A DNA stretch of 64,000 nucleotides from Patescibacteria group bacterium (GCA_023474215.1 JAMCYI010000001.1:2836-66835); one strand, 5' to 3'. Positions 1 to 49,677 are shown, numbered from the stretch's first letter. Translations and numbers: made by a program. Notes: generated by a model from the letters alone, not told the origin.

Positions 1-50
1 AAGGCGCGCGGGGGCAGGGCGAGAAAATCGTCGAGAACGTCAGGCGCGCC

Positions 51-605
51 GTGGAGGCGGAGAAGCTTCCGGGCGTCGCGGTCTCGATGCGTGAAGTCGA
101 AACGGAGAACGGCGAAAAGCGGCCATTCCTCTCGCTCGCCAACGGCAGGCTCAAGGGGTACGAGATGCTCGTCTCGGCCTCCGATTACGGCAACCGCCTC
201 GACGTCGGCTGGTATCTCGTCTTCGATTCTCCCTGGGCGCTCTTGAAGCGCCGAAGGGCGGCCGAGCAGCCGAAAAATCCGGAGAAGAGTCCCTCCATTT
301 CAGACTCGCTGATTTCGCTCGCGGGGCCGGGTGTGAAGATAGCTCAGGCGGTGGGGCGGGCGGGAGCCGCGTCGGCGGCGAAGGACAGAAAAGCGGATGA
401 AGAGGCGGCCTTCGCCATGGCGAGCGAAGGGCAGGGCTACCGCGATCCGGAAATGCTCACCATAGCCGAGAAGCGCGAGCTCCAGAATTACGTGGGCATC
501 GTGCACGGCATCCTGAAAAGCGAAGTGAAAGCGGCGATGGACGAACTCAAGCTCGATTTCTCCAAAGTGGACACAAAGTCGCAGGGATTCCTGAACGTCG
601 ACTGA
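51..605 (+). CDS. hypothetical protein (184 aa), first gene of 4-gene module; stop overlaps start of downstream ATPase (TGA 603-605 / ATG 607)
   Basis: ORF track; translational coupling with 607..1986; no recognisable motifs. Confidence 0.5.
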   Translation: MEAEKLPGVAVSMREVETENGEKRPFLSLANGRLKGYEMLVSASDYGNRLDVGWYLVFDSPWALLKRRRAAEQPKNPEKSPSISDSLISLAGPGVKIAQAVGRAGAASAAKDRKADEEAAFAMASEGQGYRDPEMLTIAEKRELQNYVGIVHGILKSEVKAAMDELKLDFSKVDTKSQGFLNVD

Positions 606-606
606 C

Positions 607-1986
607 ATGGACGAACCGCGCGTCTTCGGTGGCGAACCCTCGGAGGACATGCTCGCGCTCGGGTACGCCTGGGGCACGGACGAGAAGGGCGAGCTGTGGC
701 AGCTGAAAGCCGTCGCGCAGGAAGATCGCCTGCTCCATTTCCACGTGATCGGCGCTTCGGGCACTGGCAAGACGAAATTCCTAGAATACCTGATTGGGCA
801 GGACATCAAGAACGGATTCGGCTTCGGTGTGATCGATCCCCACGGCGACCTCATCAGGGACGTGAAAGAGTGGCTCGCCCTTGAGGATGGAGACCGCGGC
901 GAGCATGTTGTCCTCGTCGACCCCACCGACAAGAAGCGGACGGTCGCCTTCAATCCCCTCGAACTGGCTGACGGCACGGACGCGGCGCGGCAGGCACAGG
1001 AACTCGTCGTCGCCTTTAAAAAGATATACGAGGATTCGTGGGGGCAGCGGCTGGAAGGGATTTTGCGGAACACTTTGATCGCCCTCATCGAAAACCGCCT
1101 CACGCTCCTCGAACTACCCCTCTTCCTGAGGGACGCCGCGGTGCGCGCGAAGCTGCTCCGCAACGTGAAAAGCGAAACGTGCCGCGATTTCTTCGAAAAC
1201 GACTTCGAGAAATGGAGCGAGCGCACGAGGCCCGAATGGACCCAGTCGACGCTGAACAAGGTGGACGCGTTCCTCTCGGACAGCCGGATGCGGCAGATGT
1301 TCGCGCCGGCCAAGAGCTCGTTCAGCTTCAGGGATATCATGGACGGCAGGAAAATCCTGCTCGTGAACCTTTCTAAGGGAATCCTCGGCGAGGAGAGCAG
1401 CAAACTCCTGGGCTCCCTGCTCCTCGCGAAAATCCAGATGGCGGCCATGCAGCGGGCCGAAGTCAAGGAGGACGAACGGGTGCCTTTCTATTTATACATC
1501 GACGAGTTCCAGAACTTCGCCGAGGAGAGCTTCATGCGCATGCTGGACGAGACGAGAAAATACCGGCTCGCACTCACACTCGCCCACCAGCACCTGGAAC
1601 AGGTGTCGTTCAAACTCCGGCCGTCGCTCATGAACTGCGGGCTCCAGGCGTGCTTCCGCGTCGCCCCGGCGGACGCCGAGGTCCTCGCCAGAGGACTTTT
1701 CGCCGGATTGTACGCCAACATCAACGAGCGGGAGCAGTACGTCCAGCTCCTTCAATCGCTGGAGCCCCGCGCCTGCTTCGTGAGGAACAATGCAAGAGGC
1801 GGGATCATACAAATTTCCGTCCCTCCGCCTTTCAAGGGGCCGGAACGCGCCGGGCGGGAGGCGGACGATGACAGGATCGGCAGCCGCTACCTGCGGCGGC
1901 GCGAGGACATCGACAAGGAATACAGGGAAAGGCGCAGAACGCTCGTCGGTGGAGAGGACGAGGAGAATTTCTACGACTCTTTTTAA
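607..1986 (+). CDS. TrwB/TraD/VirD4-family (type IV coupling protein-like; FtsK/HerA superfamily) P-loop ATPase, soluble (no N-terminal TM)
   Basis: Walker A GASGTGKT followed by VIDPHGDL (cf. TrwB GATGTGKS...IVDPNGDM); Walker B YLYIDEFQNF; RKYRLALTLAHQ motif; paralog at 6804..8072. Confidence 0.7.
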   Translation: MDEPRVFGGEPSEDMLALGYAWGTDEKGELWQLKAVAQEDRLLHFHVIGASGTGKTKFLEYLIGQDIKNGFGFGVIDPHGDLIRDVKEWLALEDGDRGEHVVLVDPTDKKRTVAFNPLELADGTDAARQAQELVVAFKKIYEDSWGQRLEGILRNTLIALIENRLTLLELPLFLRDAAVRAKLLRNVKSETCRDFFENDFEKWSERTRPEWTQSTLNKVDAFLSDSRMRQMFAPAKSSFSFRDIMDGRKILLVNLSKGILGEESSKLLGSLLLAKIQMAAMQRAEVKEDERVPFYLYIDEFQNFAEESFMRMLDETRKYRLALTLAHQHLEQVSFKLRPSLMNCGLQACFRVAPADAEVLARGLFAGLYANINEREQYVQLLQSLEPRACFVRNNARGGIIQISVPPPFKGPERAGREADDDRIGSRYLRRREDIDKEYRERRRTLVGGEDEENFYDSF

Positions 1987-1989
1987 AAC

Positions 1990-2886
1990 ATGGGGATTGG
2001 TAAGGCGCATTTTATAAGGGAAGCCGAGGCGGCGCGCCGGAAGGCGCGCGAGGCGAAGGCGGAAGCCAAGACGGCGCGGCGGCAGTACGAGGAAACGGCC
2101 GCCGGACTCCAGCCGCGGATCGACGAACTGAGCCGCGAGGCGGACGAGCTGGCAGCGAAGTTTAAGCGGCTCTACGAAGAATCGCAGGAGCACTATGACG
2201 CGCGGGAAGGAGGCGCGGCGAAAGAATTAGCCGAGGAAGGCCACGAAGCGGAGGACCGTTGCCGTCGCCTGAACGCCGAAGCGAACGCTCTCCGGAGAGA
2301 GCTCAAGGGACTTTACGACAGATACGAAAACCTGAACAGGGAGGCGGCGCGGTTCGAGGAGGACGCCGAAACGGCCGAGGAGCAGGGGTGGCTCGTGCGG
2401 GAAACCGATGTGACGGGCTTCGGCGGGAGCGTCGCCAAGAGCAATTTCGCGGTCGAGGAATTCCTCGATACGTTCCCGCAGGGGTTGTTCCATAAGATAG
2501 AGCGCATCGAGTACCGCGCCGCGCACGAGGAGTACGAGAATGAAGGGGCGGAAGGGGTAACGAGCAGGCCGAACGAGTTCAGCCGCAAGAGGAAAATAAG
2601 AATATTCCCGCACGATGACGAGGCGCATTTCAAGAAAACCATAAGCCACGAAATAGGCCACGTCGCGTTTTACGAATTCCTGACATGGGAGGAAAAAGAC
2701 AGATGGGCGGCCCTGGCCAAAAAACTGGCGCTGGCCGGCAAGCGCATCAGTGGGTACGCTTGGAATTCCAACGAGCACTTCTGCGAATGTTTCTCCACGT
2801 TTAAAGTGGAGCCACAGGTACTAAAAAAATTCGACGAAGAGGTCTATACTTTTATGGAAGACACATTCAAATCATTGCCAAAATGA
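1990..2886 (+). CDS. coiled-coil protein with C-terminal zincin-like HExxH motif (putative metallopeptidase, SprT/WLM-like guess)
   Basis: N-terminal ~150 aa E/R/A-rich predicted coiled coil; SHEIGHVAFYEF HExxH motif with downstream NEHFCECF; ATG 4 nt after upstream stop. Confidence 0.5.
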   Translation: MGIGKAHFIREAEAARRKAREAKAEAKTARRQYEETAAGLQPRIDELSREADELAAKFKRLYEESQEHYDAREGGAAKELAEEGHEAEDRCRRLNAEANALRRELKGLYDRYENLNREAARFEEDAETAEEQGWLVRETDVTGFGGSVAKSNFAVEEFLDTFPQGLFHKIERIEYRAAHEEYENEGAEGVTSRPNEFSRKRKIRIFPHDDEAHFKKTISHEIGHVAFYEFLTWEEKDRWAALAKKLALAGKRISGYAWNSNEHFCECFSTFKVEPQVLKKFDEEVYTFMEDTFKSLPK

Positions 2887-3230
2887 AAAAACTGAAACTG
2901 TACGGGAAAAAAAGCGCATCGGACGAGATAGACCGCGAGAACGCCGTGGCGGTGATCTATGTTACCGGCAAGAAAGAGCTGATGGTTGAATCGGCGCATC
3001 CGGAGGTAAAGCGCGATATAGAAGAAGCCATTGTGGAGCTCATCAAAAAAGGCGGGCCGAAGGTAAGGCGGTGCGTTGAAAAAAATGGAGAAACAGTCAG
3101 AATCGCCACGCCACAGAAACTCGGCGATGCGGATTTTCTTGAAGCGCTGCGGGAAGAATATCCTTTCTGGTCAAGAGAGTTCAGCGGGTACGAGATAAAT
3201 CACTTGGTTTCAAGGGTGGCAGATGAATAG
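2883..3230 (+). CDS. hypothetical protein (115 aa), last gene of module (ATGA overlap with upstream gene)
   Basis: ORF track; 4-bp overlap coupling. Confidence 0.45.
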   Translation: MKKLKLYGKKSASDEIDRENAVAVIYVTGKKELMVESAHPEVKRDIEEAIVELIKKGGPKVRRCVEKNGETVRIATPQKLGDADFLEALREEYPFWSREFSGYEINHLVSRVADE

Positions 3231-3265
3231 AAGCCGCGGTTGCGGATTAAGAGCGCTTCTGCGTC

Positions 3266-4084
3266 TTACTGGCTCTTCGGCAGCACGACGTTCCCGAGGT
3301 CGATGTCGGCGTTGTCCATGGTGAACGACTTCTGCACCGTGCCGTAGCCGTCAGCCGAAAACTCGAACGTGTAGCTTCCGGCTGGAAATGATCCCAGACC
3401 GCCGTTTTGCAGAGCATTGGCCCAGAGAATGCCCATAGAACCGCAGAAGTCGCCGGCTCGCGAACTCGTTTTCAGGAACCACTCGTCCGAGATATTGCAG
3501 TTCACGGCACCCCACTTGATCCCGTCGAGCTTGGTGCCAACGGCGTTTACGACATTGACCCCGACACTGCCCCAGCGGGTGAAGACAATCTTTCCGAGAT
3601 CAATTCCTTGGGGCGGGAGATAAAATTTCTCCTCGACGGGGGTAAGCCCCGCAAGTCCTCCTTTCTCGGTATCGGGCACTTCCATCATGTACGTTCCGGG
3701 CGGGAGCGTCGTCGAAGGATCGCTCTCGCTCTTCGCCGTCATGGCGAGAACGCCGTCTTTTATCACGGCTCTCCCCGCATACTCGCCCAGAGAGTCGTAT
3801 ATCCGTACATCCGCGCCGTTATCCCACGGATCGGTGATGTCGTCATACGACTTGCCGTACTGGTCGACGACATACGCCGTGACCGTTCCCGGCTTGACCT
3901 GCGGAGCGACCACAGGTTTCGCGGCTGAGACGCTGCTTCCCGGTGCCGCCTGCTTCGGAACAATCGCGGATGGCTGGTTTCCGGCGGACTGGCTCGGGGC
4001 ACCGCTGAAGGGATGGGCGTAATAGACGGACGCGCCCGCGACCACCACGGCGACCGCTACGTAAAGAACTATTTTCGTTTTCAT
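3266..4084 (-). CDS. membrane-anchored/secreted hypothetical protein (272 aa)
   Basis: N-terminal hydrophobic helix MKTKIVLYVAVAVVVAGASVYY; G/S/T/P-rich extracellular region. Confidence 0.55.
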   Translation of the reverse strand: MKTKIVLYVAVAVVVAGASVYYAHPFSGAPSQSAGNQPSAIVPKQAAPGSSVSAAKPVVAPQVKPGTVTAYVVDQYGKSYDDITDPWDNGADVRIYDSLGEYAGRAVIKDGVLAMTAKSESDPSTTLPPGTYMMEVPDTEKGGLAGLTPVEEKFYLPPQGIDLGKIVFTRWGSVGVNVVNAVGTKLDGIKWGAVNCNISDEWFLKTSSRAGDFCGSMGILWANALQNGGLGSFPAGSYTFEFSADGYGTVQKSFTMDNADIDLGNVVLPKSQ

Positions 4085-4094
4085 ATATGTAGAA

Positions 4095-4505
4095 TTATTC
4101 CGACTTTTGCTTCTCCTCTTTCTCCTCCTCCTTTTTCGCCCTGTACGGAATCATAGCCGTGTTGATGCCCATCTTCGCCATCCTTCCCCCTCCGGAGAAA
4201 ATTAGGAAGACGAAGAGGTACTGGAGCAGGGCGTCGCCCAGCTTCTCGGCGTTTTGGCCGACGGCCGCGAGCAGTTCGACGCTGTTCGTCGCCCCGAAAC
4301 GGGCGCCGCTCTCCGTGGCTGCGCCCGGCGCGACGTTGATCTTCGCTTCGAGTATCGAGGGGATGTCGTTCCCGCGGAACACCTGATACCCGTACCAGAC
4401 GCCGAAGCCGACAACGACCGCTCCGGCCGCGATGAGGATCAGGCTCAAGATGGCGTAATATTTTTTCTCGTGTTTCATGTCATTGAGTGTTGCCGACGGT
4501 CTCAC
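4095..4505 (-). CDS. small membrane protein
   Basis: TM helix YYAILSLILIAAGAVVVGFGVWYGY; K/E-rich tail. Confidence 0.45.
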   Translation of the reverse strand: MRPSATLNDMKHEKKYYAILSLILIAAGAVVVGFGVWYGYQVFRGNDIPSILEAKINVAPGAATESGARFGATNSVELLAAVGQNAEKLGDALLQYLFVFLIFSGGGRMAKMGINTAMIPYRAKKEEEKEEKQKSE

Positions 4506-4683
4506 TGTTCAACTCCGAAAGGCACTTCTCGACTTCGCTCGCGGGAACGGTGAACGCGGCGTATGGCTTGTACTCCTTGAAAGCGCAGTCTTCGTAATTG
4601 GGCGCGGGAGCGCTTTTGAGAAAAAAGGCGACAGCGACGAGCGCAGCCACAGCTATCGCTATGAGCCAGATAAGGGATTTCAT
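4480..4683 (-). CDS. small secreted protein (67 aa, signal peptide)
   Basis: MKSLIWLIAIAVAALVAVAFF N-terminus; operon position. Confidence 0.35.
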   Translation of the reverse strand: MKSLIWLIAIAVAALVAVAFFLKSAPAPNYEDCAFKEYKPYAAFTVPASEVEKCLSELNSETVGNTQ

Positions 4684-4916
4684 GTTCTAGACTCCTCCTT
4701 TGTCCGCGCGAGCCGGTTGATCAGGAGGCACACCGCGAAGTACAGCCACAGGGCGTTCCAGAATATCGCGGGCGCTATGAATTTCCGCGGATTATCGGAC
4801 GACAGGAAAAAAATGAATACCCCAGCAATCAGAAAGACGGCGAACAGCACCCAGTACGTAATGTGACGCTTTTTGGAAAGCGGAACTCCGAAAACTAGAC
4901 GTAATACTTTGTTCAT
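4680..4916 (-). CDS. small membrane protein (2 TM)
   Basis: two hydrophobic helices; 4-bp overlap with downstream gene. Confidence 0.4.
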   Translation of the reverse strand: MNKVLRLVFGVPLSKKRHITYWVLFAVFLIAGVFIFFLSSDNPRKFIAPAIFWNALWLYFAVCLLINRLARTKEESRT

Positions 4917-5178
4917 GTGTTCCTAACAAATAAACCCGACCTTTTTCTCTGGCCGGGTTCGACAAACTGCTCTGTGTGAAAACACAAAGCTCCCAGCCAG
5001 TGATGCCTTGCGGCACCCATACAGGTTTCCCCGTATGACCAGTAACGGAGCTCTGACTAGGAGCTTTCTATTCGTTACTGGTTTTTTGAACCCTGCCGCA
5101 GGCTTCCCTACGGGTTAGGTCTCATGTTTAGTTGTATGGAGTCAATATTAACACACTGGACAAGGAGGGCAAGACAAC

Positions 5179-5207
5179 AAAACGGCTACCTAAATATAGC
5201 CGTTTTT
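5179..5207 (+). terminator. hairpin aaaacggcta-cctaaata-tagccgtttt followed by TGC; bidirectional-looking terminator
   Basis: perfect 10-bp stem with A/T tracts on both sides. Confidence 0.5.
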
Positions 5208-5385
5208 GCTTAAAACTCATCTCCTGCGGATGTATAGATAACCGACGAGCAGTCCTAACACAAAGCCGAGGAGGGAGAAATCTATCTTCTCCACGGTTAT
5301 AAAGGAACGCCTGATTCGCTGAAGCGACCAGGAATTCCTGATTGCACTTCAGCGACCTTTGGTTATTTATACAATGAAAACACGA

Positions 5386-6594
5386 TTATGTCAATTGCTG
5401 GAATATGCGACCCATCCTAACGGGGACCACTGCCCCATTCCTCCAAACGCGAAGAGTTACGGGGATATTATTGTTTTTGCGTAGAACGTCGATTAGATAT
5501 TTAAGGGAAAAATGCTGCTCATCAATAATATCCTCATTCACCCCGACAATGACATCCCCTGCTCTAAGTCCGAATTTCTCAGCGATTGATCCAGGTACAA
5601 CGGCGGGGTTTTTCTTGTTGTCCTGGAGGAGCGCACCATGGTCAATTGGTAAATTTCGCTCATTGGCGATACCCGCTGTCAGTGGAATATAGTGTATCCC
5701 GAGCTGTCGCTGGTGCAAATACTCTCTCTTCATCTCTCTAATCGCTTTAGACACTTCGTTCTTAGCTAGCTGTTTCTCGTACTTAGCTATCATCTGTTCC
5801 TCATCATACCCGAACATCTTATAAAACAATTCTTTGCATCCAAGTTTTATCCCTTCCCAAAATCCGACTTCCCGATAATATCCCCGGTGGTGTAACCGAT
5901 CGCCTATCTGTTTGAGAGACGTTTCTAGACGGTCTATAGACTCATCAATTAGTTCTTCTGAACGGTAAAAGGCAGTCCGTTCGTCGTATTCAACGTAGAT
6001 TTCTCTTTGCCATATCGTCTTATAAAGTTCACCTCTAATATTTTGACTCAGGTAGGAGTATCTTATTCGAAACGCCAAATCCTCGAGATGTTGAGACGAT
6101 TCCAGCGTTCTCCGGCCTCTCGACAGCTCAAGATATTCTTTCTCATCATCCGTAAGGGGATATTTCTTACGGAACAGTCCGTCTATTGGTCTACCGAGAT
6201 ACTTATAGTAAGAGCTGCGAGAGTTACCGAGCATTTTTTCCAATGGCTCAACGTAGCGATCAAAAAGGGTGTCTTCCTTGTCAACGTCCTCTCTGGAATC
6301 GTCGTCAAAAAACTCGGAGAGGCTAAGGAGCAAATCCATGACAGGATTGATAATCTCCCTAATAGTCTCCTTCCTTACCTCGCCTTTTTCTTGTAAATCC
6401 GCTGCAGCAGATTCCAATAGTTTCTTGTGTGCTTCTCTTAACTGCTGGATACCAGCGTTGACGATTTCGCTGTCTTTCTGCAGGAGGCGAACTTCGATGT
6501 CTCTTTTGGCGTTTCTCCAAACTACAATAACGCCGAGTACGCCAGCGAAAAATGCGATTACTATGTTAACGAGTAGGTTGAGTAAAGAACCCAC
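5386..6594 (-). CDS. membrane-anchored protein with C-terminal PDZ domain (402 aa), low-GC gene
   Basis: N-terminal TM LLVNIVIAFFAGVLGVIVVW; C-terminal GDVIVGVNEDII...VTLRVWRNG PDZ-like; AT-rich codon usage vs neighbours. Confidence 0.6.
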   Translation of the reverse strand: MGSLLNLLVNIVIAFFAGVLGVIVVWRNAKRDIEVRLLQKDSEIVNAGIQQLREAHKKLLESAAADLQEKGEVRKETIREIINPVMDLLLSLSEFFDDDSREDVDKEDTLFDRYVEPLEKMLGNSRSSYYKYLGRPIDGLFRKKYPLTDDEKEYLELSRGRRTLESSQHLEDLAFRIRYSYLSQNIRGELYKTIWQREIYVEYDERTAFYRSEELIDESIDRLETSLKQIGDRLHHRGYYREVGFWEGIKLGCKELFYKMFGYDEEQMIAKYEKQLAKNEVSKAIREMKREYLHQRQLGIHYIPLTAGIANERNLPIDHGALLQDNKKNPAVVPGSIAEKFGLRAGDVIVGVNEDIIDEQHFSLKYLIDVLRKNNNIPVTLRVWRNGAVVPVRMGRIFQQLT

Positions 6595-6778
6595 ATTCCT
6601 ATTGTATCACGCCTTCTTTGATTTTCTTCCTTGGAAAATGCTATCCTTCTCCTGTCATTACCCGGAATCTTCGGGCATCGCCCGGCTTTCCGGAGTGGGG
6701 CGTCGAGAGTCAACGCTTCGCTCTCCCCCGCGCGGCTTCTCTCAGGCCGCGCTGGGGATGGAATGAGCTGGTACAATG

Positions 6779-6803
6779 AAAGGGTCGTCAGCCCTTTTTT
6801 ATT
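6779..6803 (+). terminator. hairpin aaaggg-tcgtcag-cccttt plus T-run abutting TTG start of paralog ATPase; terminator/attenuator-like
   Basis: stem-loop followed by TTTTTTATTTT. Confidence 0.4.
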
Positions 6804-8072
6804 TTGGAAATCCTCTCCATCGGCAAAGCCGCCTCCCGCTCAGGAAGCGTCGAGTTCGGCATCAAATCTCCCGACCGGCGGCACCACATGTACCTCGTGG
6901 GCCAGACCGGCACCGGCAAGTCCACCTTCCTCAAGAATGCGGCGGTTCAAGACTTGCGGGCTGGGCGCGGCCTTGCGGTAATCGATCCTCATGGCGCGCT
7001 TGTCGAGGACATCCTGCGGTTCATTCCCAGGCGCCGGACGGGCGAGGTCGCGTATTTCAATCCGACTGACGCCGATCATCCCGTCGGCCTTAATATCCTC
7101 GAGGCGAGGAGCGAGAACGAGCGGAACCTGGTCGCCTCGTCCCTCATCTCGATTTTCAAATATCTCTGGAAGGACTTCTGGGGTCCTCGGCTGGAGCATG
7201 TTTTCCACAATGCAATCCTCGCCCTAATGGACACGCCGGATTCGACGCTCCTCAGCGTGTACCGGATGCTTGCCGACGACGCCTTCCGCGCGAAGGTCGT
7301 CGGGAGGGCGAAGGACCCGGTCGTGAGGTTCTTCTGGGAAGAGGATTTCGAGAAATATCCGGCGCGGTTCAAGAAGGAAGTGACGTCGCCGATCCAGAAC
7401 AAGATCGGGCAGCTCCTCACGAACAGCTGCATTCGGAACATCGTCGGGCAAGCCGAGAGCACGCTCGACCTGCGGTTCCTGATGGACAACCAGAGGATTC
7501 TCTTTGTAAATCTCGCCAAAGGCGTGATCGGCGAGGATAAGGCAAACCTCCTAGGATCGGTGCTCGTGACGAAACTGTACCTCGCGGCGCTCGAGAGGCA
7601 GACAGTGCCGGAGGACAAGCGCCGGGATTTCTACCTTTATATCGACGAATTCCAGAATTTTTCGACGGAAGCGTTTCCGTCGATGTTGTCCGAATCCCGC
7701 AAGTACCGGCTGAACCTGATTCTGGCGCACCAGTATCTCCGCCAGCTCCCGGAGAGCGTGCGCCACGCCGTCTTCGGGAACGTCGGGACGCTCTCCGCCT
7801 TCCGCGTCGGCGGGCTCGACGCAGAGGAGCTGGCCAAGGAATTCCAGCCGGACTTCGAGCGGGACGATCTCACCCATATCGAGAACTACCGCTTCTGCAC
7901 AAGGCTCATGATCGACGGCAAGCGGTCAAAGCCGTTCTCGGCTGAAACGCTCCCGCCTCCCCGCCTGCGGGGCGACGAGGCGGACGCCGAGACGGTCATA
8001 AGGATTTCTCAAGAGCGTTTTGCTTCAAAACGTGAAGACGTGGAACAAGCGGTCGAAAAATGGTTCGCCTGA
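6804..8072 (+). CDS. TrwB/TraD/VirD4-family P-loop ATPase, paralog of 607..1986 (apparent TTG start)
   Basis: GQTGTGKST...VIDPHGAL, YLYIDEFQNF, RKYRLNLILAHQ; roughly 40% identity to first copy by eye. Confidence 0.7.
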   Translation: MEILSIGKAASRSGSVEFGIKSPDRRHHMYLVGQTGTGKSTFLKNAAVQDLRAGRGLAVIDPHGALVEDILRFIPRRRTGEVAYFNPTDADHPVGLNILEARSENERNLVASSLISIFKYLWKDFWGPRLEHVFHNAILALMDTPDSTLLSVYRMLADDAFRAKVVGRAKDPVVRFFWEEDFEKYPARFKKEVTSPIQNKIGQLLTNSCIRNIVGQAESTLDLRFLMDNQRILFVNLAKGVIGEDKANLLGSVLVTKLYLAALERQTVPEDKRRDFYLYIDEFQNFSTEAFPSMLSESRKYRLNLILAHQYLRQLPESVRHAVFGNVGTLSAFRVGGLDAEELAKEFQPDFERDDLTHIENYRFCTRLMIDGKRSKPFSAETLPPPRLRGDEADAETVIRISQERFASKREDVEQAVEKWFA

Positions 8073-8418
8073 GGCGAATCCGTTTTTCGCGTCGCGATCT
8101 CGGCTGCGCGGCCTCGAGCTTTTTATTTTGCCTTCCCCCCACCGCGCGCAGCGAAAAGAGAAAAGCTCCGGCGAAGGAGAGCGGAGGCCCGAGGATGCCC
8201 CGAGCCCGAAGCGGAAGCGAGGGGTGAAGGGGCAATGAGGACATGTTGTCGGGGGCCGGAGCCGCAAGAACGGAGAGAAAATATTCCGTCGTTTGCGGGC
8301 GGATCCGCCTTCCGGAGGCAGTCGTTCCGGAACGACCCCTTGAACGACCCCTTTGCGAATCAGAAATTTCTGGTAAAATAGGTTCTGATACCGGCGCGTA
8401 AACTCACTAAACCAAAGG

Positions 8419-8446
8419 CCGGTGACTCTTGTCACCGGTTTTTGGT
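8419..8446 (+). terminator. rho-independent terminator ccggtgac-tctt-gtcaccgg + TTTTT
   Basis: perfect 8-bp GC stem and T-run; flanked by direct ggttctgat. Confidence 0.7.
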
Positions 8447-8632
8447 TCTGATGTTTTCAAGGAGAGGATAAGAACCTTTGAAAGGGGGTCGGGGAAGAGC
8501 GGAAGCGCTTCCCCGTGGAGGAATGAGTCCGCGAAAGCGGACGGACTCAAAACCGAGGGTTTTGAGGGAGCGAAGCGACAGGTTCCATATCCTTCCCTGC
8601 ACACACTTTGAAAAATCGGCCTTCTAAAACTC

Positions 8633-8660
8633 GACCAGCTCACTGCTGGTCTTGTTTTTT
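8633..8660 (+). terminator. terminator gaccagc-tcact-gctggtc + cTTGTTTTTT (overlaps copy 1 of 35-bp direct repeat)
   Basis: 7-bp stem + T-run. Confidence 0.6.
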
Positions 8661-8673
8661 GAAGATTCGAGCC
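8639..8673 (+). repeat. 35-bp exact direct repeat copy 1 (ctcactgctggtcttgttttttgaagattcgagcc)
   Basis: identical to 10314..10348. Confidence 0.9.
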
Positions 8674-9070
8674 AGGTCGACATTCAACCATAACCCTAGG
8701 CGATAAGAGCACTTCTAGGTGGTATAATAACAATGACTCAGGGGGGGTCAGTTTTGTTTATCGCGAAAACAAGATAGCTATGAAGTTACCAAAGAGGGTA
8801 GATGTAAAAAATTCAAAAGGTCGATATTATATTCTAACCTAACTCTCTTTTCACTACCATAAAGTGGGGGGGCGGCTAAGGTAAACATTATGAGTAAAGA
8901 AAACCCTCGAACGGAGCGGGAAAAGAAAAGAGCCCGTGAGGAAAAACAAATAAAAAAGACGGGGGACAAATTAAAGGCAAAGCGTCTCCAGCGGCATCAG
9001 CATCCGCTACCGCCACATTAAAGGTGTACATTGAAGAAATAAAAGCCGGATTAACTTGTTAACAAGTCAT

Positions 9071-9616
9071 ATGAGAAAAAAGATTGTTGTCGGCGCAATA
9101 ATTTTGGTGGCGATAGTCATAGCGTACATCGGTGTCAGAGTAGCGTATAACCAGTATGAATGGAATCATAGTAAAGCTACGATAGCTAGTCCTGCCGTAG
9201 TAAACCCAACTCTTACAGGTAGCGTTACCACTGTTGGAAACGGCATAAGCATTACAGCTGATGCCGTGCAATCATCCGGTGTTATTAGTCAGACTTCTGC
9301 TGGAGATAATTCCGTGCTCAACTTAGTCGGTCCGGCGTTAGTGAAAATAACGGTAAACACTTCAGGTAGTAACTGCGCACTGGCTAATGCGTTGGGCGGG
9401 AGCTTCATGTATGGTCAATTCAAAACGCCAATTAGCGGATCTGCCGAAAAAACAGTCAGTTTTCCAGCGGATGGGATAATGTTCATGAGCGGCGTGTGTA
9501 TGGATTCCAGCGGCAATCCTATTGGTTTACCCAATAGTTTGATCGTGGAAACCGTCTCTAAAGGTGAGACGTTGGATAACCACGGCGCTCTTCAGACGGT
9601 TAACATGCCATGGTGA
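9071..9616 (+). CDS. membrane-anchored extracellular protein, paralog A
   Basis: N-terminal TM KKIVVGAIILVAIVIAYIG; shares VQSSGVI / CMDSSGNP motifs with 9703..10296. Confidence 0.55.
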   Translation: MRKKIVVGAIILVAIVIAYIGVRVAYNQYEWNHSKATIASPAVVNPTLTGSVTTVGNGISITADAVQSSGVISQTSAGDNSVLNLVGPALVKITVNTSGSNCALANALGGSFMYGQFKTPISGSAEKTVSFPADGIMFMSGVCMDSSGNPIGLPNSLIVETVSKGETLDNHGALQTVNMPW

Positions 9617-9702
9617 ACACTGCCGAAATGTAAGGGTTTGCTCTAATTTTATCCTTCCCTTCCTACGGCACATTATCATTACCCCATACAAATAATTAGA
9701 TC

Positions 9703-10296
9703 ATGAACGAAAAACCGAGAAAGAAAATATGGAGACATTGGTGGTTCTGGACGTTGATAGCGGTTTGTATAATGGCCTTGGCGGTCGCAGTGGTGCGCCT
9801 GCGCAACCAGAACAAGGTGCATTTGCCCAGTGGTCTTCCACAGAAACCTGTCAGTATGCCGTTTACTGGTACGTATGCCGCCTCGTCAACCGGCTATGCC
9901 AGCATATCACTGAGTGTTTTACAGTCATCCGGCATCATCAAAGCCGGAAGTTATAACGGTAAGGTGGGTACGCCCATCGGAGTATCTGCGGAAATAATGG
10001 GGCCAGCCGAACTTGATGTGAGAATCGATTCGATGTCCCAGGTTTGTATAATCTCGCATTCACTAGATATTACAACCGGGAGGGGCACATCATTAACCCA
10101 TGCGGTTGAGGTAACGCTCAACGTGCCCCCAGGCGGATTCATTAACTACTACGTCTTGTGCAAGGATTCGAACGGCAGCTACCAACTTTCTGAGTTAACG
10201 GTTAATGTATGGAATCCTGCCACGTACGGTACGGAGGCGATGTCCAAAGAGGCATTGACGCAAATTAACCTACCTGGCCTTAACAGCGTTCCTTAA
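9703..10296 (+). CDS. membrane-anchored extracellular protein, paralog B
   Basis: N-terminal TM WWFWTLIAVCIMALAVAVV; LQSSGII, CKDSNGS motifs. Confidence 0.55.
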   Translation: MNEKPRKKIWRHWWFWTLIAVCIMALAVAVVRLRNQNKVHLPSGLPQKPVSMPFTGTYAASSTGYASISLSVLQSSGIIKAGSYNGKVGTPIGVSAEIMGPAELDVRIDSMSQVCIISHSLDITTGRGTSLTHAVEVTLNVPPGGFINYYVLCKDSNGSYQLSELTVNVWNPATYGTEAMSKEALTQINLPGLNSVP

Positions 10297-10313
10297 GGGC
10301 ACTAATATAAAGG

Positions 10314-10348
10314 CTCACTGCTGGTCTTGTTTTTTGAAGATTCGAGCC
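10314..10348 (+). repeat. 35-bp exact direct repeat copy 2
   Basis: identical to 8639..8673. Confidence 0.9.
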
Positions 10349-10508
10349 GGCAATTTTCGGCAATAGGGGAGAGAAGCCACTTTTTGGCGATGGCGAGCGA
10401 TTTCTCTTTTTGAATACTTAGCTTTTCACCCTCCGCCAAAAAGTTCGAGCCGAAACTGAATCTACACCTTGAAAGTCGCCTCAGTAGAGTATCTATCACT
10501 CATATTTA

Positions 10509-11024
10509 CTAGATATCGTCTTGCCCAATTCCCATTTCTTTTCTCATTTCTTTTTTGACGTCTGCTAAGGCGGCCAGTAATTTCGTAATATGTTCTTCCT
10601 TTTGCAAACCAGAAAGACCTTGAGATTTTCCGACTAATTGAGCAAAGACCCTCGCTTTTTCTTCTAGCTCTTCTTCACCAAATAAGTTGATGGGGGACAT
10701 TGCGTTGCGAGTTTCTTCGCTATCTTTATCTCTAGCCTCTTTCATTTCCTTGGCAAGCGTCTCAAGTTGTTCTTGGGAAAAATTAGAGGTATCTATTTCT
10801 TCTTCAATCTGGATATCCCTAATGGTCTTGATGAAGTGAGAAAGAGCGTTTACGTAGGCCGTCTTCTTCGCGTCGAAAAGCCTCTGCTTCCTTTGCTCTT
10901 CTTTCTGAAATTTGATTTGGATTTGCAGGCGTCTCTCCTCGGATTTGGTTTGTCTACTTGTTGCCCATGCGGCGATGATGCCTCCAGATATGGTCCCCAA
11001 GAGAGTGAAAATTGCTATAAGCAT
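10509..11024 (-). CDS. membrane-anchored coiled-coil protein (171 aa)
   Basis: N-terminal TM then K/E/Q-rich helical region. Confidence 0.45.
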   Translation of the reverse strand: MLIAIFTLLGTISGGIIAAWATSRQTKSEERRLQIQIKFQKEEQRKQRLFDAKKTAYVNALSHFIKTIRDIQIEEEIDTSNFSQEQLETLAKEMKEARDKDSEETRNAMSPINLFGEEELEEKARVFAQLVGKSQGLSGLQKEEHITKLLAALADVKKEMRKEMGIGQDDI

Positions 11025-11118
11025 ACCTTTTATCTCATTAATTCTCCGACTTTTAGTCGTGCCTGGAAGAGGGCACGGGATATGCTGTTATCTTAACATT
11101 TTTAGCTATAATGATGGC

Positions 11119-11703
11119 ATGGATCCACTTGAGTTTTTAAAGAGTAGGGTTAAAGAAGGGTCAGAGGAACAGCTTAATAATGTAATTGCTAAGGGTGTAT
11201 TGAAACTGGGCGACGAGCAGATTGCCACGGTCGCATTCGTTTTTTGGCTGGTCTATATGGCCGAAACTGAATTAAACGCCGCTACGAGCCAGTCGTGGGC
11301 CATCGTGGAGAAGTTCGCCCCTCAAGGTGTAAAAGAGATGGTAGCGGACAGGGTGCAAAAATTAGCAGGAGGACGCAAAAAGTTAGATCTCAAAAATCTT
11401 GAGTATTTCTCAGATAAGATTAGGGTCTACGAGGCACTACTCGGAGACAACAAACTAAAGAGACTTCTATGGAAATTGAACGATATAAGAAACGACCTGA
11501 GCCACAATCGCGTTAGCAATCTTAGCTACGATGGTGAGTCACTCTCATTAAGGAGCACCAAGGAAAAAATTTTGATTGATTATTTTGACGCTGTTTTGAA
11601 TAGCGATGTCACTACATCGGACACCTGGAACTCTCTTAGCGAAGATAACAAAAAGGTGGTGAAGTCGATTGCGCGAGAGGTCAAAAAACAGGGCCTCAGT
11701 TAA
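11119..11703 (+). CDS. hypothetical protein with HEPN-like R-N-x3-H motif (KLNDIRNDLSHNR)
   Basis: RNDLSH fits HEPN Rx4-6H with polar residue after R; TATAAT at 11106-11111; low-GC island. Confidence 0.4.
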   Translation: MDPLEFLKSRVKEGSEEQLNNVIAKGVLKLGDEQIATVAFVFWLVYMAETELNAATSQSWAIVEKFAPQGVKEMVADRVQKLAGGRKKLDLKNLEYFSDKIRVYEALLGDNKLKRLLWKLNDIRNDLSHNRVSNLSYDGESLSLRSTKEKILIDYFDAVLNSDVTTSDTWNSLSEDNKKVVKSIAREVKKQGLS

Positions 11704-12311
11704 ATCGGCATTATTCTAGCTCCGCGCCGGGCGAATTCTTTGGATATCCTTTCCAAACCATCTAGGTCAGCTTGCGTTGCAACACTGGCATCCTTGAATA
11801 CATCTGCATGCATAAGGGTAAAGCCATCTATAAAAAGCTTGATTAGTGTGTCGGGAGATATGAACGCAACAGTATGGCCGAGTTTTTTAAATTTCTCATC
11901 CCAGTCCCTTATAACGTCCGTGCTTTCGGAACCGTTAGGCATATTTATGGAAACTCCATTTTCTGGCTCTGGCAAACCGAATGCGTGGACGATTGCACAA
12001 CGGAATTTATACAAAAACTTTTCGTTGACCAGTTTAAGATAAGGGTGGGTTTTATAGGTCGCATTGCTTTCGATAACGCAATATTTTTTCATCCACTCTT
12101 CCAAGAGAGGACGGCCGCCCAGACTGCGGTTATAGAAAGCGTTGTATAAGTTACTGGCGATTTCCAAAAACGAAAATGCTACTAACGCCCTCACCCTAAC
12201 GAACTGCTGATCTTTTCTGAGAACTCCAATTGCGCCGGATATCTCCTCAACCATTTCCCCTAGTCTATCATCGACATCTTTTTTCACCTCCTCGTATCTC
12301 TTGATATCCAT
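11700..12311 (-). CDS. hypothetical protein (203 aa) convergent with and overlapping the HEPN-like gene by 4 bp
   Basis: ORF track; no recognised motif. Confidence 0.45.
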   Translation of the reverse strand: MDIKRYEEVKKDVDDRLGEMVEEISGAIGVLRKDQQFVRVRALVAFSFLEIASNLYNAFYNRSLGGRPLLEEWMKKYCVIESNATYKTHPYLKLVNEKFLYKFRCAIVHAFGLPEPENGVSINMPNGSESTDVIRDWDEKFKKLGHTVAFISPDTLIKLFIDGFTLMHADVFKDASVATQADLDGLERISKEFARRGARIMPI

Positions 12312-12549
12312 GTTGTATGTTTTTAATTCTAAACCACCTCGTAGCTAGAGGGTAGTGGGAAATCCTCCTGCCCGTGCGCGGGAGTGGCGGGGCAGAGGCA
12401 GAACCGCGCGGAGAATGAACCATGATGTGCTAAGGAGGGAAAAATGGCGGAAGGGAAATTTTCTCCCGCCTTATCTTGTGCGCATCTTTCTCTTAAGATA
12501 ATTTCATAACGCTCCCCGTACTGAATTCGGATGTGTTAGAATATATGCA

Positions 12550-12951
12550 ATGAGCGAGGGGGAGAAAATCATAAATTGGCTAGAGAGAAATTGGTTTAGA
12601 TTAGGTGTACTTCTAATTCTGATTGCGATCGGAGCCGCTATTGTCTATTACATTGCAATCTTCTTACCGGACAGGCAATCTCAACTGGATCAGGAGAAGA
12701 AGGATGCTGTTATAGCCAACACGGTGTCCAGAAATAAATGCCTAGCTAATGCGGCGAGTGATTATCGAGACCTTTTAAAAGAGAACACCTACAGTGATGG
12801 AACCTTCAAGAGTACAAACGCTGAGCAGTATGTAGAAAATAAGTATACAGATGAGAAAGACGAATGTTTCAAGGAATACCCAATTAACGCGGATATCCAA
12901 TTGCCCTACGCGGACCCAACGAACATCTTCTATAATTTGCTTAACAAATAG
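12550..12951 (+). CDS. small membrane-anchored protein
   Basis: TM WFRLGVLLILIAIGAAIVYYIAIFL. Confidence 0.5.
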   Translation: MSEGEKIINWLERNWFRLGVLLILIAIGAAIVYYIAIFLPDRQSQLDQEKKDAVIANTVSRNKCLANAASDYRDLLKENTYSDGTFKSTNAEQYVENKYTDEKDECFKEYPINADIQLPYADPTNIFYNLLNK

Positions 12952-13331
12952 ATAAATCTATTTTACAACGCTCTCGGAATGCTTTTTGAATTGCCTGCGA
13001 TACATGAAAAAGGTTCTAACGTCCTCGACTACCGCGCACATTAAACCCCCCGACCCCCGTCTGGGACACCCCCGGGTTTCTCATCAGCCGCACTTTGTGC
13101 GGCTCCTTCCAACACGGGGATTTAATTCTTCCTTCTGCTTTGCAGAAGGATTCTCGTTTTTGGAAGAGAGGATTCGAACAGGGAAGGGGTCGGGAAACCG
13201 GGAGGTTTCCCGTCGCGAAGCTCACGTCAACGCTCGGGTTCGTGGGAGCGAGTTGCTACAGAGCAACTCGCGACGTTTGACTCCTCTCCTGGGCACAAAG
13301 ATTTCATCAAATATCTGCTATAATCCAGATT

Positions 13332-13877
13332 ATGGAATATCTGGATGTCTTGGATGCTCGGGGCAACCCAACCGGACAAAAAAAGACCAAAGCGGAAATT
13401 CACGAAGCCGGGGACTGGCACAAAGCAGTCCATGTTTGGATTGTAAACTCCAAGGGAGAATTGCTAATTCAAAGACGTTCGCCGGAAAAGGACAGCCATC
13501 CCAATATGTGGGATATTTCCGGTGCGGGACATGTTTCATTCGGAGAAGCACCTATCACATCCGCGTTAAGGGAGGTTGAGGAAGAGTTGGGTATATCCTT
13601 CCCGAAGGAAAAATTCGAGCATCTTTTCGGCTTAACCCAGCAATCAATCCAAAAAAACGGCGCCTGGAAGAACAACGAATTCAACGACGTTTACCTGATC
13701 GAAGCGGACTTAGACGTCAATACCCTCAAACTCCAAGAGGAAGAGGTTGCTGAAGTGAAATTCATTCCCTACAAAGAACTCGAGAAAGAAATTTCTTCCG
13801 GAAACGATAAATACGTTCCTCATCCAGAAGAATACCGGCGACTTTTCGAGGAGCTTCATAGAAGATATGCAAACTAA
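13332..13877 (+). CDS. Nudix hydrolase
   Basis: Nudix box GHVSFGEAPITSALREVEEELGI. Confidence 0.85.
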   Translation: MEYLDVLDARGNPTGQKKTKAEIHEAGDWHKAVHVWIVNSKGELLIQRRSPEKDSHPNMWDISGAGHVSFGEAPITSALREVEEELGISFPKEKFEHLFGLTQQSIQKNGAWKNNEFNDVYLIEADLDVNTLKLQEEEVAEVKFIPYKELEKEISSGNDKYVPHPEEYRRLFEELHRRYAN

Positions 13878-43042: not shown

Positions 43043-43180
43043 GTGAGGGTATTTCTCTTCAAAACACGCTATCAAATTCCCCAGCGTGGAATTTGCGCTC
43101 GCTCTCGGCCTCGCTCTGCCCTTCGGGCAACCATGCCCGCGAGGCCTCCGAGACGGTTTCGAAAGAGAAATATCCTCACC
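43043..43180. repeat. palindrome-flanked element family A (TIR GTGAGGGTATTTCTCTT / AAGAGAAATATCCTCAC), 5 nt after stop
   Basis: 16/17 TIR; internal aaacacgct...cgctcgctctcgg...gagacggttt shared with 49488..49629. Confidence 0.6.
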
Positions 43181-47579: not shown

Positions 47580-49486
47580 TGGAAACCATTCGAAATTTTT
47601 GCATTATCGCTCATATCGATCACGGTAAGAGCACGCTTGCCGACCGCCTTCTCGAGATCACGGGGACGGTCGAATCGCGGCGCATGCATGCCCAGTATTT
47701 GGATCAACTCGATCTCGAGCAAGAGCGGGGGATCACCATCAAAATGGCCCCCGTCCGGATGGCATATCATCCGGAATTAGGAATTTCGAATTTCGAATTT
47801 CGAAACAAAGAAAACAATCCTGCTGCCGCTCAAAATTCAAAATTAAAAATTAAAAATTCAGGTTCAGAATATATTCTGAACCTCATAGATACTCCCGGCC
47901 ACTCCGATTTCGCGTACGAAGTATCGCGATCGTTGAACGCCGTCGAGGGCGGCATTCTTCTTGTCGACGCGACACAGGGGATCCAAGCCCAGACACTTTC
48001 CAATTTCAGAGCGGCAAAAGCGGCCGGCCTCACGCTCATCGGGGCGATCAATAAGATCGATCTTTTCAAGGATCGGAACGACCACGCACTTGCCGAACTC
48101 CGAAAGGAAGTGGCGGAACTCCTGGGGATAGGGCCGGAGGACGTTTTCATGGTTTCAGGGAAGACCGGCGAAGGTGTCGAGCAACTTTTGTCGGCTATTA
48201 TCGAAAAGGTTCCGCCGCCAAAAGTCGCAAATTCAAATTTCAAATTTCAAATTTCAAATTTGGGCCGCGCTCTTATCTTCGATTCGTTCTACGACGATCA
48301 TAAAGGCATCGTCGCTTCCGTTCGCGTTTTCGAGGGAGCTTTCGAACGCGAAGACCCGATCGTTCTTGCAGCAACGGGCACCGAAGTAAAGATCAAAGAG
48401 GTCGGTTACTTCTCGCCTCAGCCGAAAGCAGCTCAATCGATCAAGAAAGGCGAGATCGGCTACATTGCGACCGGCATCAAAGACACGAGCAAAGTAAAGA
48501 TCGGCGACACCGTTCTCATGATCCCCAAACCTTACACCATCGACCCTCAAACCCTCGCTCTTCCCGGTTACCGGGAGCCGAACCCCGTGGTTTTCGTTTC
48601 TTTTTATCCCGAAGATGCCGACGACTATGAAAATCTGAAGAGGGGACTTGAAAAACTCCATTTGAACGACTCATCGCTCCATATCGAGCCGGACCAGAAT
48701 GAGATTCTGGGGAGGGGATTCAAAGTCGGATTCCTCGGCAAGCTTCACTTTGAAATAACCGCGGAGCGCCTCGAGCGCGAGTTCGATGCGCGGGTCGTAA
48801 GCACGTTCCCATCCGTCGTCTACAAGATCGTCAATAAAGGAAAGGAAGAATTCATTACAAAACCGGAAGATCTGCCGAACGAATACGACGAGATTTGGGA
48901 ACCGCTCGTCCGCATCAATATCCTCGTTCCTTCGAATTACCTTGCAAGCGTCCTCTCGCTCCAGAATAAATTCCGGATCGAGGATCTGACGACGAAGACG
49001 GTCGTGAACTCCATCGATATCGAAGCGATCATGCCTCTTTCCGAACTCGTGAGCGATTTCGACGACCAACTGAAATCGGCAACGTCCGGCTATGCTTCGT
49101 TCAGCTACGAATTTTTGGACTATCGCAAGGCCGACGTCGTGAAAGTGGATAATTTCGTCGCGGGCGAGATCATTCCGGGCCTTTCGCGGTTCTTCCCTCG
49201 GGAAAGCGTGGAGCGTGAAGCGCGGAAGATGGTGGAAAAACTAAAAATTACCCTTCCGAAACAGCAGTTCCCGCAGGCGCTCCAAGCGAAGATCTCGGGG
49301 AAGGTCATCGCACGCGAGGATATTCCGGCCATGCGGAAGGAACTCGGCAATTTCGGCAAAAACGGCGGAGACCGGACGCGAAAAATGAAACTCTGGCAAA
49401 AGCAGAAAAGGGGGAAGGAAAAACTGAAAGCAATGGGAAAGGTGCGGATCGCGCCGGAGGTATTCAAGGAATTAATTAAGAAATAA
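47579..49486 (+). CDS. lepA: elongation factor 4 (LepA) with two in-frame repeat-derived insertions
   Basis: NFCIIAHIDHGKSTL, DTPGH; C-terminal LepA domain; insertions at about 47772-47884 and 48227-48262. Confidence 0.95.
   Translation: METIRNFCIIAHIDHGKSTLADRLLEITGTVESRRMHAQYLDQLDLEQERGITIKMAPVRMAYHPELGISNFEFRNKENNPAAAQNSKLKIKNSGSEYILNLIDTPGHSDFAYEVSRSLNAVEGGILLVDATQGIQAQTLSNFRAAKAAGLTLIGAINKIDLFKDRNDHALAELRKEVAELLGIGPEDVFMVSGKTGEGVEQLLSAIIEKVPPPKVANSNFKFQISNLGRALIFDSFYDDHKGIVASVRVFEGAFEREDPIVLAATGTEVKIKEVGYFSPQPKAAQSIKKGEIGYIATGIKDTSKVKIGDTVLMIPKPYTIDPQTLALPGYREPNPVVFVSFYPEDADDYENLKRGLEKLHLNDSSLHIEPDQNEILGRGFKVGFLGKLHFEITAERLEREFDARVVSTFPSVVYKIVNKGKEEFITKPEDLPNEYDEIWEPLVRINILVPSNYLASVLSLQNKFRIEDLTTKTVVNSIDIEAIMPLSELVSDFDDQLKSATSGYASFSYEFLDYRKADVVKVDNFVAGEIIPGLSRFFPRESVEREARKMVEKLKITLPKQQFPQALQAKISGKVIAREDIPAMRKELGNFGKNGGDRTRKMKLWQKQKRGKEKLKAMGKVRIAPEVFKELIKK
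47780..47884. repeat. (GAATTTC)3 - spacer - (AAAATTM)4 - 24-bp perfect palindrome ggttcagaatatattctgaacc, in-frame inside lepA
   Basis: direct reading; adds ~27 aa between G2 and G3 regions relative to E. coli LepA. Confidence 0.85.
48227..48262. repeat. (AAATTTC)n heptamer tandem repeat in-frame inside lepA
   Basis: aaattcaaatttcaaatttcaaatttcaaattt. Confidence 0.85.
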
Positions 49487-49487
49487 C

Positions 49488-49629
49488 GGCAACTCTCGAT
49501 CTCTTCCCAAACACGCTGTGCCAAACCCCGGCGAGGTTTGGCCGCTCGCTCTCGGGTTCGCTCTCTCGCTTCGCTCGAACCGTGCCCGTTCACCCTGCGA
49601 GACGGTTTTGTCAGAAATCGAGAGTTGCC
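49488..49629. repeat. palindrome-flanked element family A/B (13-bp perfect TIR GGCAACTCTCGAT), 1 nt after lepA stop
   Basis: perfect TIR; shared internal blocks with 43043..43180 and compensatory internal hairpins. Confidence 0.65.
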
Positions 49630-49677
49630 TAAATTTTGGGGTGGGTGTTTTTGACTCAAGGAAGGGGTGGTGTAAAA

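Follow-up and report, generated by a model that had tools for sequence, protein, structure and literature searches.

Exact 36-nt direct repeats enclose a two-gene cassette in a small tRNA-linked island of a Patescibacteria group bacterium

Islands associated with tRNA genes are known from elements with tyrosine integrases, which duplicate the 3' end of the tRNA gene as attL and attR, and sublocations of integration within tRNA genes have reportedly been described (Williams 2002). In Streptococcus thermophilus, integrase-less cis-mobilizable elements (CIMEs) are said to accrete in tandem beside integrative elements, as with ICESt1. A locus from an uncultured Patescibacteria group bacterium is compared here with these systems. 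It lies in a stretch of 64,000 nt (GCA_023474215.1 JAMCYI010000001.1:2836-66835; hereafter the window), where an island of 4.9 kb (8408-13296) with the genes A to F follows immediately 3' of a tRNA-Leu(GAG) position, and where the genes A and B form a cassette between two copies of a 36-nt direct repeat. The island is probably an integrase-less islet of mosaic structure linked to a tRNA gene, with the 36-mer as the duplicated junction of a single-crossover insertion of the A-B cassette or as the substrate of the reverse deletion.

The 36-nt repeat (GCTCACTGCTGGTCTTGTTTTTTGAAGATTCGAGCC) is exact over its whole length (36/36) and present in two copies (Table 1). An earlier reading of the sequence alone (the sequence-only reading) had reported it as an exact 35-bp repeat at 8639 and 10314; exactness and copy number stand, whereas the length is 36 nt and both copies start one position earlier. 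At up to 3 mismatches the window contains two matches to the 36-mer, with none in 100 shuffles, and diverged copies (up to 9 mismatches) were absent from 1.76 Mb of fetched loci. Its 28-nt core gave no match in the JGI metagenome and IMG/VR collections, a weak negative as the JGI-sourced contig L003 does carry the 36-mer. The repeat is thus unique to this locus in the window and the fetched loci and gives no sign there of being a common terminator motif of the genome, the finding that the sequence-only reading had named as speaking against its proposal. The sequences flanking the two copies are unrelated beyond the 36 nt. Copy 1 is part of a GC-rich hairpin with a T-tract, as expected for a rho-independent terminator, and the left edge of copy 2 cuts through this hairpin, leaving only copy 1 with the 5' arm. 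Copy 2 cannot form the stem, and the suggestion of a duplicated terminator had to be given up. A boundary that cuts the terminator hairpin indicates that the repeated unit is a product of recombination and no copied functional unit.

A haplotype with a single repeat was found by a homologue search with gene D, which led via a 95%-identical protein (P0003) to six contigs (L110-L115) that stem from other samples, namely from four ENA assemblies and two Logan runs. These contigs match the window from 10313 to 12514, the block with the genes C, D and E, at 95.6-96.3% identity. The four of them that reach the site (L110, L111, L112 and L115) contain one 36-mer and no A-B, and the other two, L113 and L114, begin inside the C-D-E block to the right of the site and are uninformative on the copy number. 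Left of the block the four contigs match window 8580-8675 at 92.7%, and both matches overlap on the one 36-mer (in L110, positions 234-328 correspond to window 8580-8675 and 291-2491 to window 10313-12514). The left flank of this single 36-mer is that of copy 1 and its right flank is that of copy 2; the variant lacks exactly the 1,675-bp period containing A and B, with indel endpoints that coincide with the repeat. All four contigs therefore show the single repeat and the matching flanks of an unoccupied site, and the earlier suggestion of att-like repeats around an inserted cassette holds for the A-B pair.

In L110, L111 and L112, an intact tRNA-Tyr(GTA) gene (ARAGORN, Rfam) precedes the single 36-mer at a distance of 33 nt, and the 36-mer supplies loop, 3' arm and T-tract of the terminator of this gene plus 13 nt. 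A decayed 3' fragment of the same tRNA lies left of copy 1 in the window. The two haplotypes agree at 85% over the 58 nt left of the repeat and at 88% over the 160 nt to its right, as compared with 36/36 for the 36-mer itself. Simple arithmetic gives a chance of about 0.007 for 36/36 at an identity of 0.87 per site, which points to constraint on the block or to a recent exchange. For the genes C, D and E, the identity between the haplotypes is 96-98%. The variant departs from the window left of 8580, where it has a 93-aa gene and the tRNA-Tyr gene, and right of 13180, where a terminator and a pilin-like gene follow, which places C-D-E there in a different chromosomal context.

The repeats had also been taken as the boundaries of the island, which is not the case, as they bracket A-B only and the island is bounded by the 3' end of tRNA-Leu(GAG) and a 20/23 direct repeat of this end. 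Contigs covering the island locus were gathered by gene A or by the NUDIX gene of the right-hand flank. On the left side, L001 (GCA_027423645.1) and L002 follow the window with 100% identity from 8405 on and are unrelated before, their upstream sequence being rplS followed by tRNA-Leu(GAG). This tRNA gene is intact in L001 (9253-9337) and ends at the base equivalent to window 8407; in the window, an element X replaces the tRNA-Leu side. On the right side, L010, which is 98.7% identical in the core genes, has another left flank, which matches window 8270-8385 at 93% and is followed by a 22-nt linker; the NUDIX flank then sets in directly behind the CAC of 13274-13296. From these breakpoints, both ends of 8408-13296 are population breakpoints at the tRNA-Leu 3' end or its copy. 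Including the variant, at least four haplotypes exist at the locus, namely rplS-tRNA-Leu-island, X-island (window), X'-NUDIX (L010) and tRNA-Tyr-C-D-E (variant).

With 45.2% GC, the island lies below every 4.9-kb segment of the chromosomal remainder (minimum 48.9%), which has 51.1% overall, and the foreign element upstream has 55.8%. The lower GC content reported in the sequence-only reading is confirmed by these values, but its contrast of about 40% with about 58% was overstated and partly compares the island with another foreign segment. Both ends of the island are strongly structured (fold z-scores of -6.4 for 8405-8680 and -6.9 for 13080-13300). No tRNA or tmRNA was detected in the island flanks by ARAGORN, and Rfam (gathering thresholds and E<=5) gave chance-level matches only over 8000-13400; an assignment of the GC-rich flanks as intron-containing tRNAs or as tmRNA-like was rejected, as there was no T-stem and no detection. 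Neither blastn-short nor nhmmer revealed homology between the two GC-rich flanking modules, which have only short motifs in common. Searches of the island against phage and plasmid collections (blastn) led to no match, and in a scan of genome contigs with the NUDIX flank the best match, from Paceibacterota, had 57% identity and was no close relative. By the source names of this match and of the homologues of D, the organism is a Patescibacteria/Paceibacterota-like bacterium. Many contigs start or stop between 13079 and 13229 (L009, L011 and L012 start at 13083, L098 and L099 end at 13079-13086, L004 ends at 13175, and L100 and L101 end at 13211-13229), which suggests further population variants at the right-hand structured spacer.

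Compared to tRNA-associated islands, the locus has most of the defining features and lacks the integrase. It starts exactly at the tRNA-Leu 3' end with a direct repeat of that end at the distal side, and shows an atypical GC content, orphan or accessory cargo, strain-specific breakpoints at both ends and a tRNA-Tyr relic inside. It differs from such islands in its very small size and in the lack of an integrase gene, be it next to the tRNA or further inside, and both of its ends bear additional T-arm-like fragments in inverted orientation together with GC-rich hairpin spacers. The most fitting description is that of a small islet, either decayed or trans-dependent. It resembles CIMEs in that its modules lack a recombinase, that repeated att-like sequences follow a conserved target, that one module between identical repeats is either present or absent, and that a larger T4CP-bearing element (X) is adjacent in the window. 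By analogy, the A-B cassette would behave like an integrase-less cis-mobilizable module between att-like repeats. In contrast to CIMEs, neither an integrase nor an excisionase belonging to the cassette was identified, the repeat is located in a tRNA terminator and not at the 3' end of a gene, only one exact repeat pair is present, and mobilisation is putative. Small promoter-poor cassettes without a recombinase of their own and bounded by structured recombination sites are also reminiscent of integrons. A-B was nevertheless rejected as an integron cassette: IntI and attI are both missing, the repeat is direct and exact instead of an imperfect palindrome like attC, and the cassette consists of two genes and a leader of approximately 400 bp.

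The arrangement may be explained by an islet built from modules that vary separately in the population, namely the A-B cassette, the C-D-E block and an F cassette. The 36-mer would originally have belonged to the terminator region after the tRNA-Tyr gene, which is intact in the sister haplotype and reduced to the 3' relic in the window. A circular DNA carrying the same 36 nt could then have recombined with this region, leading to the entry of the 1.64-kb A-B by a single (Campbell-type) crossover, with either a trans-acting site-specific recombinase or short-homology recombination as the agent. The two copies would be attL/attR-like junctions, and the reverse reaction would result in the precise loss of A-B with one copy left behind. 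As the repeat cuts the hairpin, coincides with the indel ends and is single in the unoccupied state, a single-crossover insertion is the simplest account.

Several observations weigh against this account. No integrase, recombinase or transposase was found in the island, in the 8.4 kb of X or, by a Pfam scan, among ten ORFs (open reading frames) of 250-400 aa elsewhere in the window; tblastn with the serine recombinase of L116 was likewise negative. No direct tRNA-Leu/NUDIX junction, which would be the true empty site of the island, and no alternative cassette at the site of A-B occurred among the contigs compared. L010 defines the right-hand boundary and does not prove absence of the island in that strain, as the same sample also yields the island contig L004. 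The data include no outgroup to fix the polarity of the A-B indel, and the loss of F in the variant, with 7 bp of microhomology, resembles an illegitimate deletion, so A-B could have been lost there likewise. Finally, the likeness of the 36-mer to the other hairpin/T-arm-like sites of the island is weak (p ~0.04 in the comparison with 13141-13176), and that of the sequence after gene B to the tRNA-Leu end is equally marginal (p ~0.04).

The main rival is that both 36-nt copies are old and that the one-copy haplotype arose through deletion of A-B, by recombination or replication slippage on the repeat as substrate. Reduced genomes are deletion-prone, which counts for this explanation, as do the missing recombinase in all searches and the variant's lack of gene F with only AACGCTC at the junction, a typical signature of illegitimate deletion. 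As in repeat-mediated deletion, direct repeats of 36 nt and 7 nt border the two segments that the variant lacks, and exactly one copy of each remains. Deletion alone, though, leaves unexplained how an exact 36-nt duplication that cuts a hairpin came about beforehand, for which a crossover-type insertion is the simplest source. Furthermore, the two copies are identical while nearby non-coding DNA has diverged by 12-15% between the haplotypes, favouring recent duplication or constraint. We regard an origin by deletion from an old two-copy state as possible and rather unlikely.

If instead the repeat were a functional element used twice, as a terminator or regulatory site after an upstream RNA and after gene B, it could be kept by selection with no insertion at all. 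The good terminator-like hairpin with T-tract at copy 1, the short distance of 17 nt between the stop codon of gene B and copy 2, and the conservation of the 36-mer above that of its flanks agree with such a role. It is nonetheless very unlikely, as the TAAAG in place of GACCA at copy 2 precludes a terminator stem, the conserved unit runs 13 nt beyond the T-tract, the indel endpoints match the repeat exactly, and a third copy is absent from the 64 kb, in which terminators are required for dozens of genes. The arrangement could also stem from the assembly, by a chimeric join at a shared k-mer, and short Logan unitigs do end within the repeat (8644 is the start of both L005 and L007, and L005 ends at 10342, 6 nt inside it). 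Such breaks are, however, expected from a 36-nt repeat at k=31, a graph structure that also accounts for the 1,699-bp unitig L005 without a circular or excised intermediate. The two-copy form is present in the window and in three independent assemblies, L001 (a metagenome-assembled genome (MAG) from NCBI), L002 and L004, all spanning both copies at 100% identity; the names of the L002 and L004 contigs (k141_...) are MEGAHIT-style, pointing to a final k of 141. Samples of the two-copy type include ERZ27236928, ERZ27237183 and SRR10244963, and those of the one-copy type ERZ27237541, ERZ27237554 and SRR13300764. As four contigs, each from a different sample or run, likewise gave the one-copy form independently, an assembly artefact is extremely improbable, and the insertion of A-B by a single crossover, or its reversal, continues to be the favoured reading.

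Table 1. Features of the island and its edges in window coordinates
Feature	Position	Strand	Remarks
CAC, last bases of tRNA-Leu(GAG) as in L001	8405-8407	+	left island boundary; breakpoint between window (X upstream) and L001 (rplS, tRNA-Leu upstream)
Hairpin, 17-bp stem, T-tracts on both strands	8410-8447	.	terminator-like, directly after tRNA-Leu
GC-rich multi-hairpin spacer	8448-8581	.	inverted T-arm-like piece near its start, 8461-8476 (-), 14/16 to tRNA-Leu T arm
Decayed tRNA-Tyr(GTA) 3' fragment GGTTCCATATCCTTCCCTGCAC	8582-8607	+	aligns to 3' end of intact tRNA-Tyr in L110/L111/L112 and its downstream flank
Intrinsic-terminator-like hairpin GACCAGC-TCACT-GCTGGTC + TTGTTTTTT	8633-8660	+	stem 8633-8651, then T-tract
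36-nt repeat, copy 1	8638-8673	+	2 nt of 5' arm, loop, 3' arm, T-tract, 13 nt beyond
Unique part of A-B cassette	8674-10312	+	1,639 bp; repeat period 1,675 bp; missing from variant haplotype
14-bp palindrome ACTTGTTAACAAGT	9054-9067	.	3 nt ahead of gene A start
Gene A, 181 aa	9071-9616	+	N-terminal transmembrane helix, immunoglobulin (Ig)-like beta-sandwich ectodomain, conserved Cys pair
Gene B, 197 aa	9703-10296	+	distant paralogue of A; membrane-anchored Ig-like protein
36-nt repeat, copy 2	10313-10348	+	without 5' hairpin arm; TAAAG upstream in place of GACCA
Gene C, 171 aa	10509-11024	-	membrane-anchored coiled-coil; in C-D-E block common with variant, 97% nucleotide identity
Gene D, 194 aa	11119-11703	+	HEPN fold, invariant R124-x4-H129
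Gene E, 203 aa	11700-12311	-	convergent with D, 4-nt overlap; no assigned function
Second indel, 452 bp, carrying gene F	12515-12966	+	AACGCTC at 12508-12514 and 12967-12973; missing from variant
Gene F, 133 aa	12550-12951	+	membrane-anchored; inside 452-bp indel
Hairpin + T-tract + inverted T-arm-like piece	13130-13181	.	T-arm piece 13165-13180 (-), 14/16; homology with variant ends 13179/13180
GC-rich multi-hairpin spacer	13182-13273	.	within region of z -6.9
Direct repeat of tRNA-Leu 3' end CGTTTGACTCCTCTCCTGGGCAC	13274-13296	+	20/23, last 15 exact; sole such match in 64-kb window; right island boundary

The cargo consists of surface and accessory functions. The genes A to F gave no match in Pfam, PADLOC, NCBIfam or PHROG, and nothing significant in PDB sequence searches. 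A and B share 23% identity (E 5e-6), in agreement with the two paralogous membrane-anchored extracellular proteins that had been predicted between the repeats. A profile search with both found 12 representatives at E<=1e-3 among 1.84 billion proteins, a tiny family, and gene B was an orphan in a word-indexed protein search. Genes of the A/B family adjoin 668-aa T4CP-like genes in L120 and L124, the two loci of relatives that were examined, with a Replic_Relax gene also in L120, and a homologue of D adjoins a large serine recombinase gene in L116. The A/B and D families thus recur on T4CP-like or recombinase-bearing elements, which speaks for a mobile-element ancestry of the cargo. The genes downstream of the cassette are as the sequence-only reading had described them, an anchored coiled-coil protein, a convergent pair of a HEPN-like and an unassigned protein, and a small anchored protein. 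Gene D, with the conserved R-x4-6-H motif and the alpha-helical HEPN fold, encodes a putative RNase; its family comprises about 44 clusters, for which one source name is given ('Patescibacteria group bacterium'). Gene E is not kept beside D in distant relatives, where D has a different, non-homologous neighbour in L116 and an 87-aa gene in L118. A conserved two-gene system of D and E was rejected on these grounds, as was a HEPN-MNT toxin-antitoxin pair, since E has no family or PDB match and the partner is not conserved. The indel with gene F is of the microhomology type.

The 14-bp palindrome described upstream of gene A is present, but the whole window has 12 perfect palindromes of this length (3.8 expected from block shuffles, maximum 8; about threefold enrichment), so that this one is individually not significant and was dismissed as a special operator candidate. 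In the leader of the cassette, an extended -10-like sequence (TGGTATAAT, 8720-8728) is directly followed by a hairpin with a T-tract (8734-8750). At 8890-9021 the leader also contains a very basic ORF of 43 codons (MSKENPRTEREKKRAREEKQIKK...), in place of which the gene callers of L002 placed a 47-aa ORF on the opposite strand.

Element X (window 1-8404) is a separate foreign element of 8.4 kb with high GC (55.8%) and encodes two TrwB/T4CP-like ATPases (607-1986 and 6804-8072). The related contigs L120 and L124 combine a 668-aa T4CP/AlbA_2 protein with the A/B-family gene, and L120 also encodes the Replic_Relax protein and a homologue of the 272-aa secreted protein of X (window 3266-4084). X or related sequence is also present in L015 and L120-L124. 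Contigs bearing X end at window 8159, and the junction of X and island (8160-8404) was seen in the window and, at 93% identity, in L010 only. The LOOT RNA (RF03000; 88-91 bits, gathering score 46) was detected at window 5002-5121 (-), L120 2582-2698 (+) and L116 3613-3732 (-). In X it lies upstream of the operon that ends in the 272-aa secreted protein, with the same position in the X-like L120, and in L116 it adjoins the D homologue and the serine recombinase; it appears to be linked to these Patescibacteria mobile elements. X and X' both have at their right end a 22-nt linker ending in CTCAC, which meets the island in the window (8386-8407) and the NUDIX flank in L010 (119-140). In L010, the linker closes with 11 nt (TAAAGGCTCAC) that recur unchanged over the left edge of copy 2 (window 10308-10318), and all junctions seen at the locus fall directly after ...CAC. 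A dispersed GC-rich, hairpin-rich intergenic repeat of approximately 115-160 nt, which gave no match in Rfam, was observed at window 49480-49640 and 43055-43168 and at L001 8699-8814 and 2328-2585. Its 49.5-kb copy is bounded by an inverted repeat (GGCAACTCTCGAT/ATCGAGAGTTGCC), and the copy at L001 2328-2585 contains a large internal insertion. The JGI contig L003 tracks the window up to 18930, where it switches to window 21306-21199 in inverted orientation (99% identity; L003 9950-10056); this reflects a structural variant or else a chimeric end of the contig.

From the tRNA linkage of the island and the repeat-flanked indel, both well-known classes of mechanism, the locus is an example of ordinary island and cassette plasticity in a little-studied bacterial group. 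A more far-reaching idea, which we consider unlikely, is that the 36-mer together with the sites 8410-8476 and 13130-13181 might form a family of tRNA-derived attachment sites, at which T4CP/Replic_Relax elements of Patescibacteria (X-like and LOOT-RNA-bearing) would deposit arrays of integrase-less cassettes behind tRNA genes with the recombinase acting in trans; if true, this would amount to an integron-like cassette platform in bacteria of the Candidate Phyla Radiation (CPR). Strain-level gene flux in Patescibacteria (CPR) is poorly documented, as most genomes are fragmentary MAGs. The locus described here is a resolved example, with a tRNA-Leu hot spot in at least four haplotypes and with both states of a two-gene surface-protein cassette, two repeats with it and one repeat without, captured in public assemblies, and it offers a concrete site for testing excision and integration.

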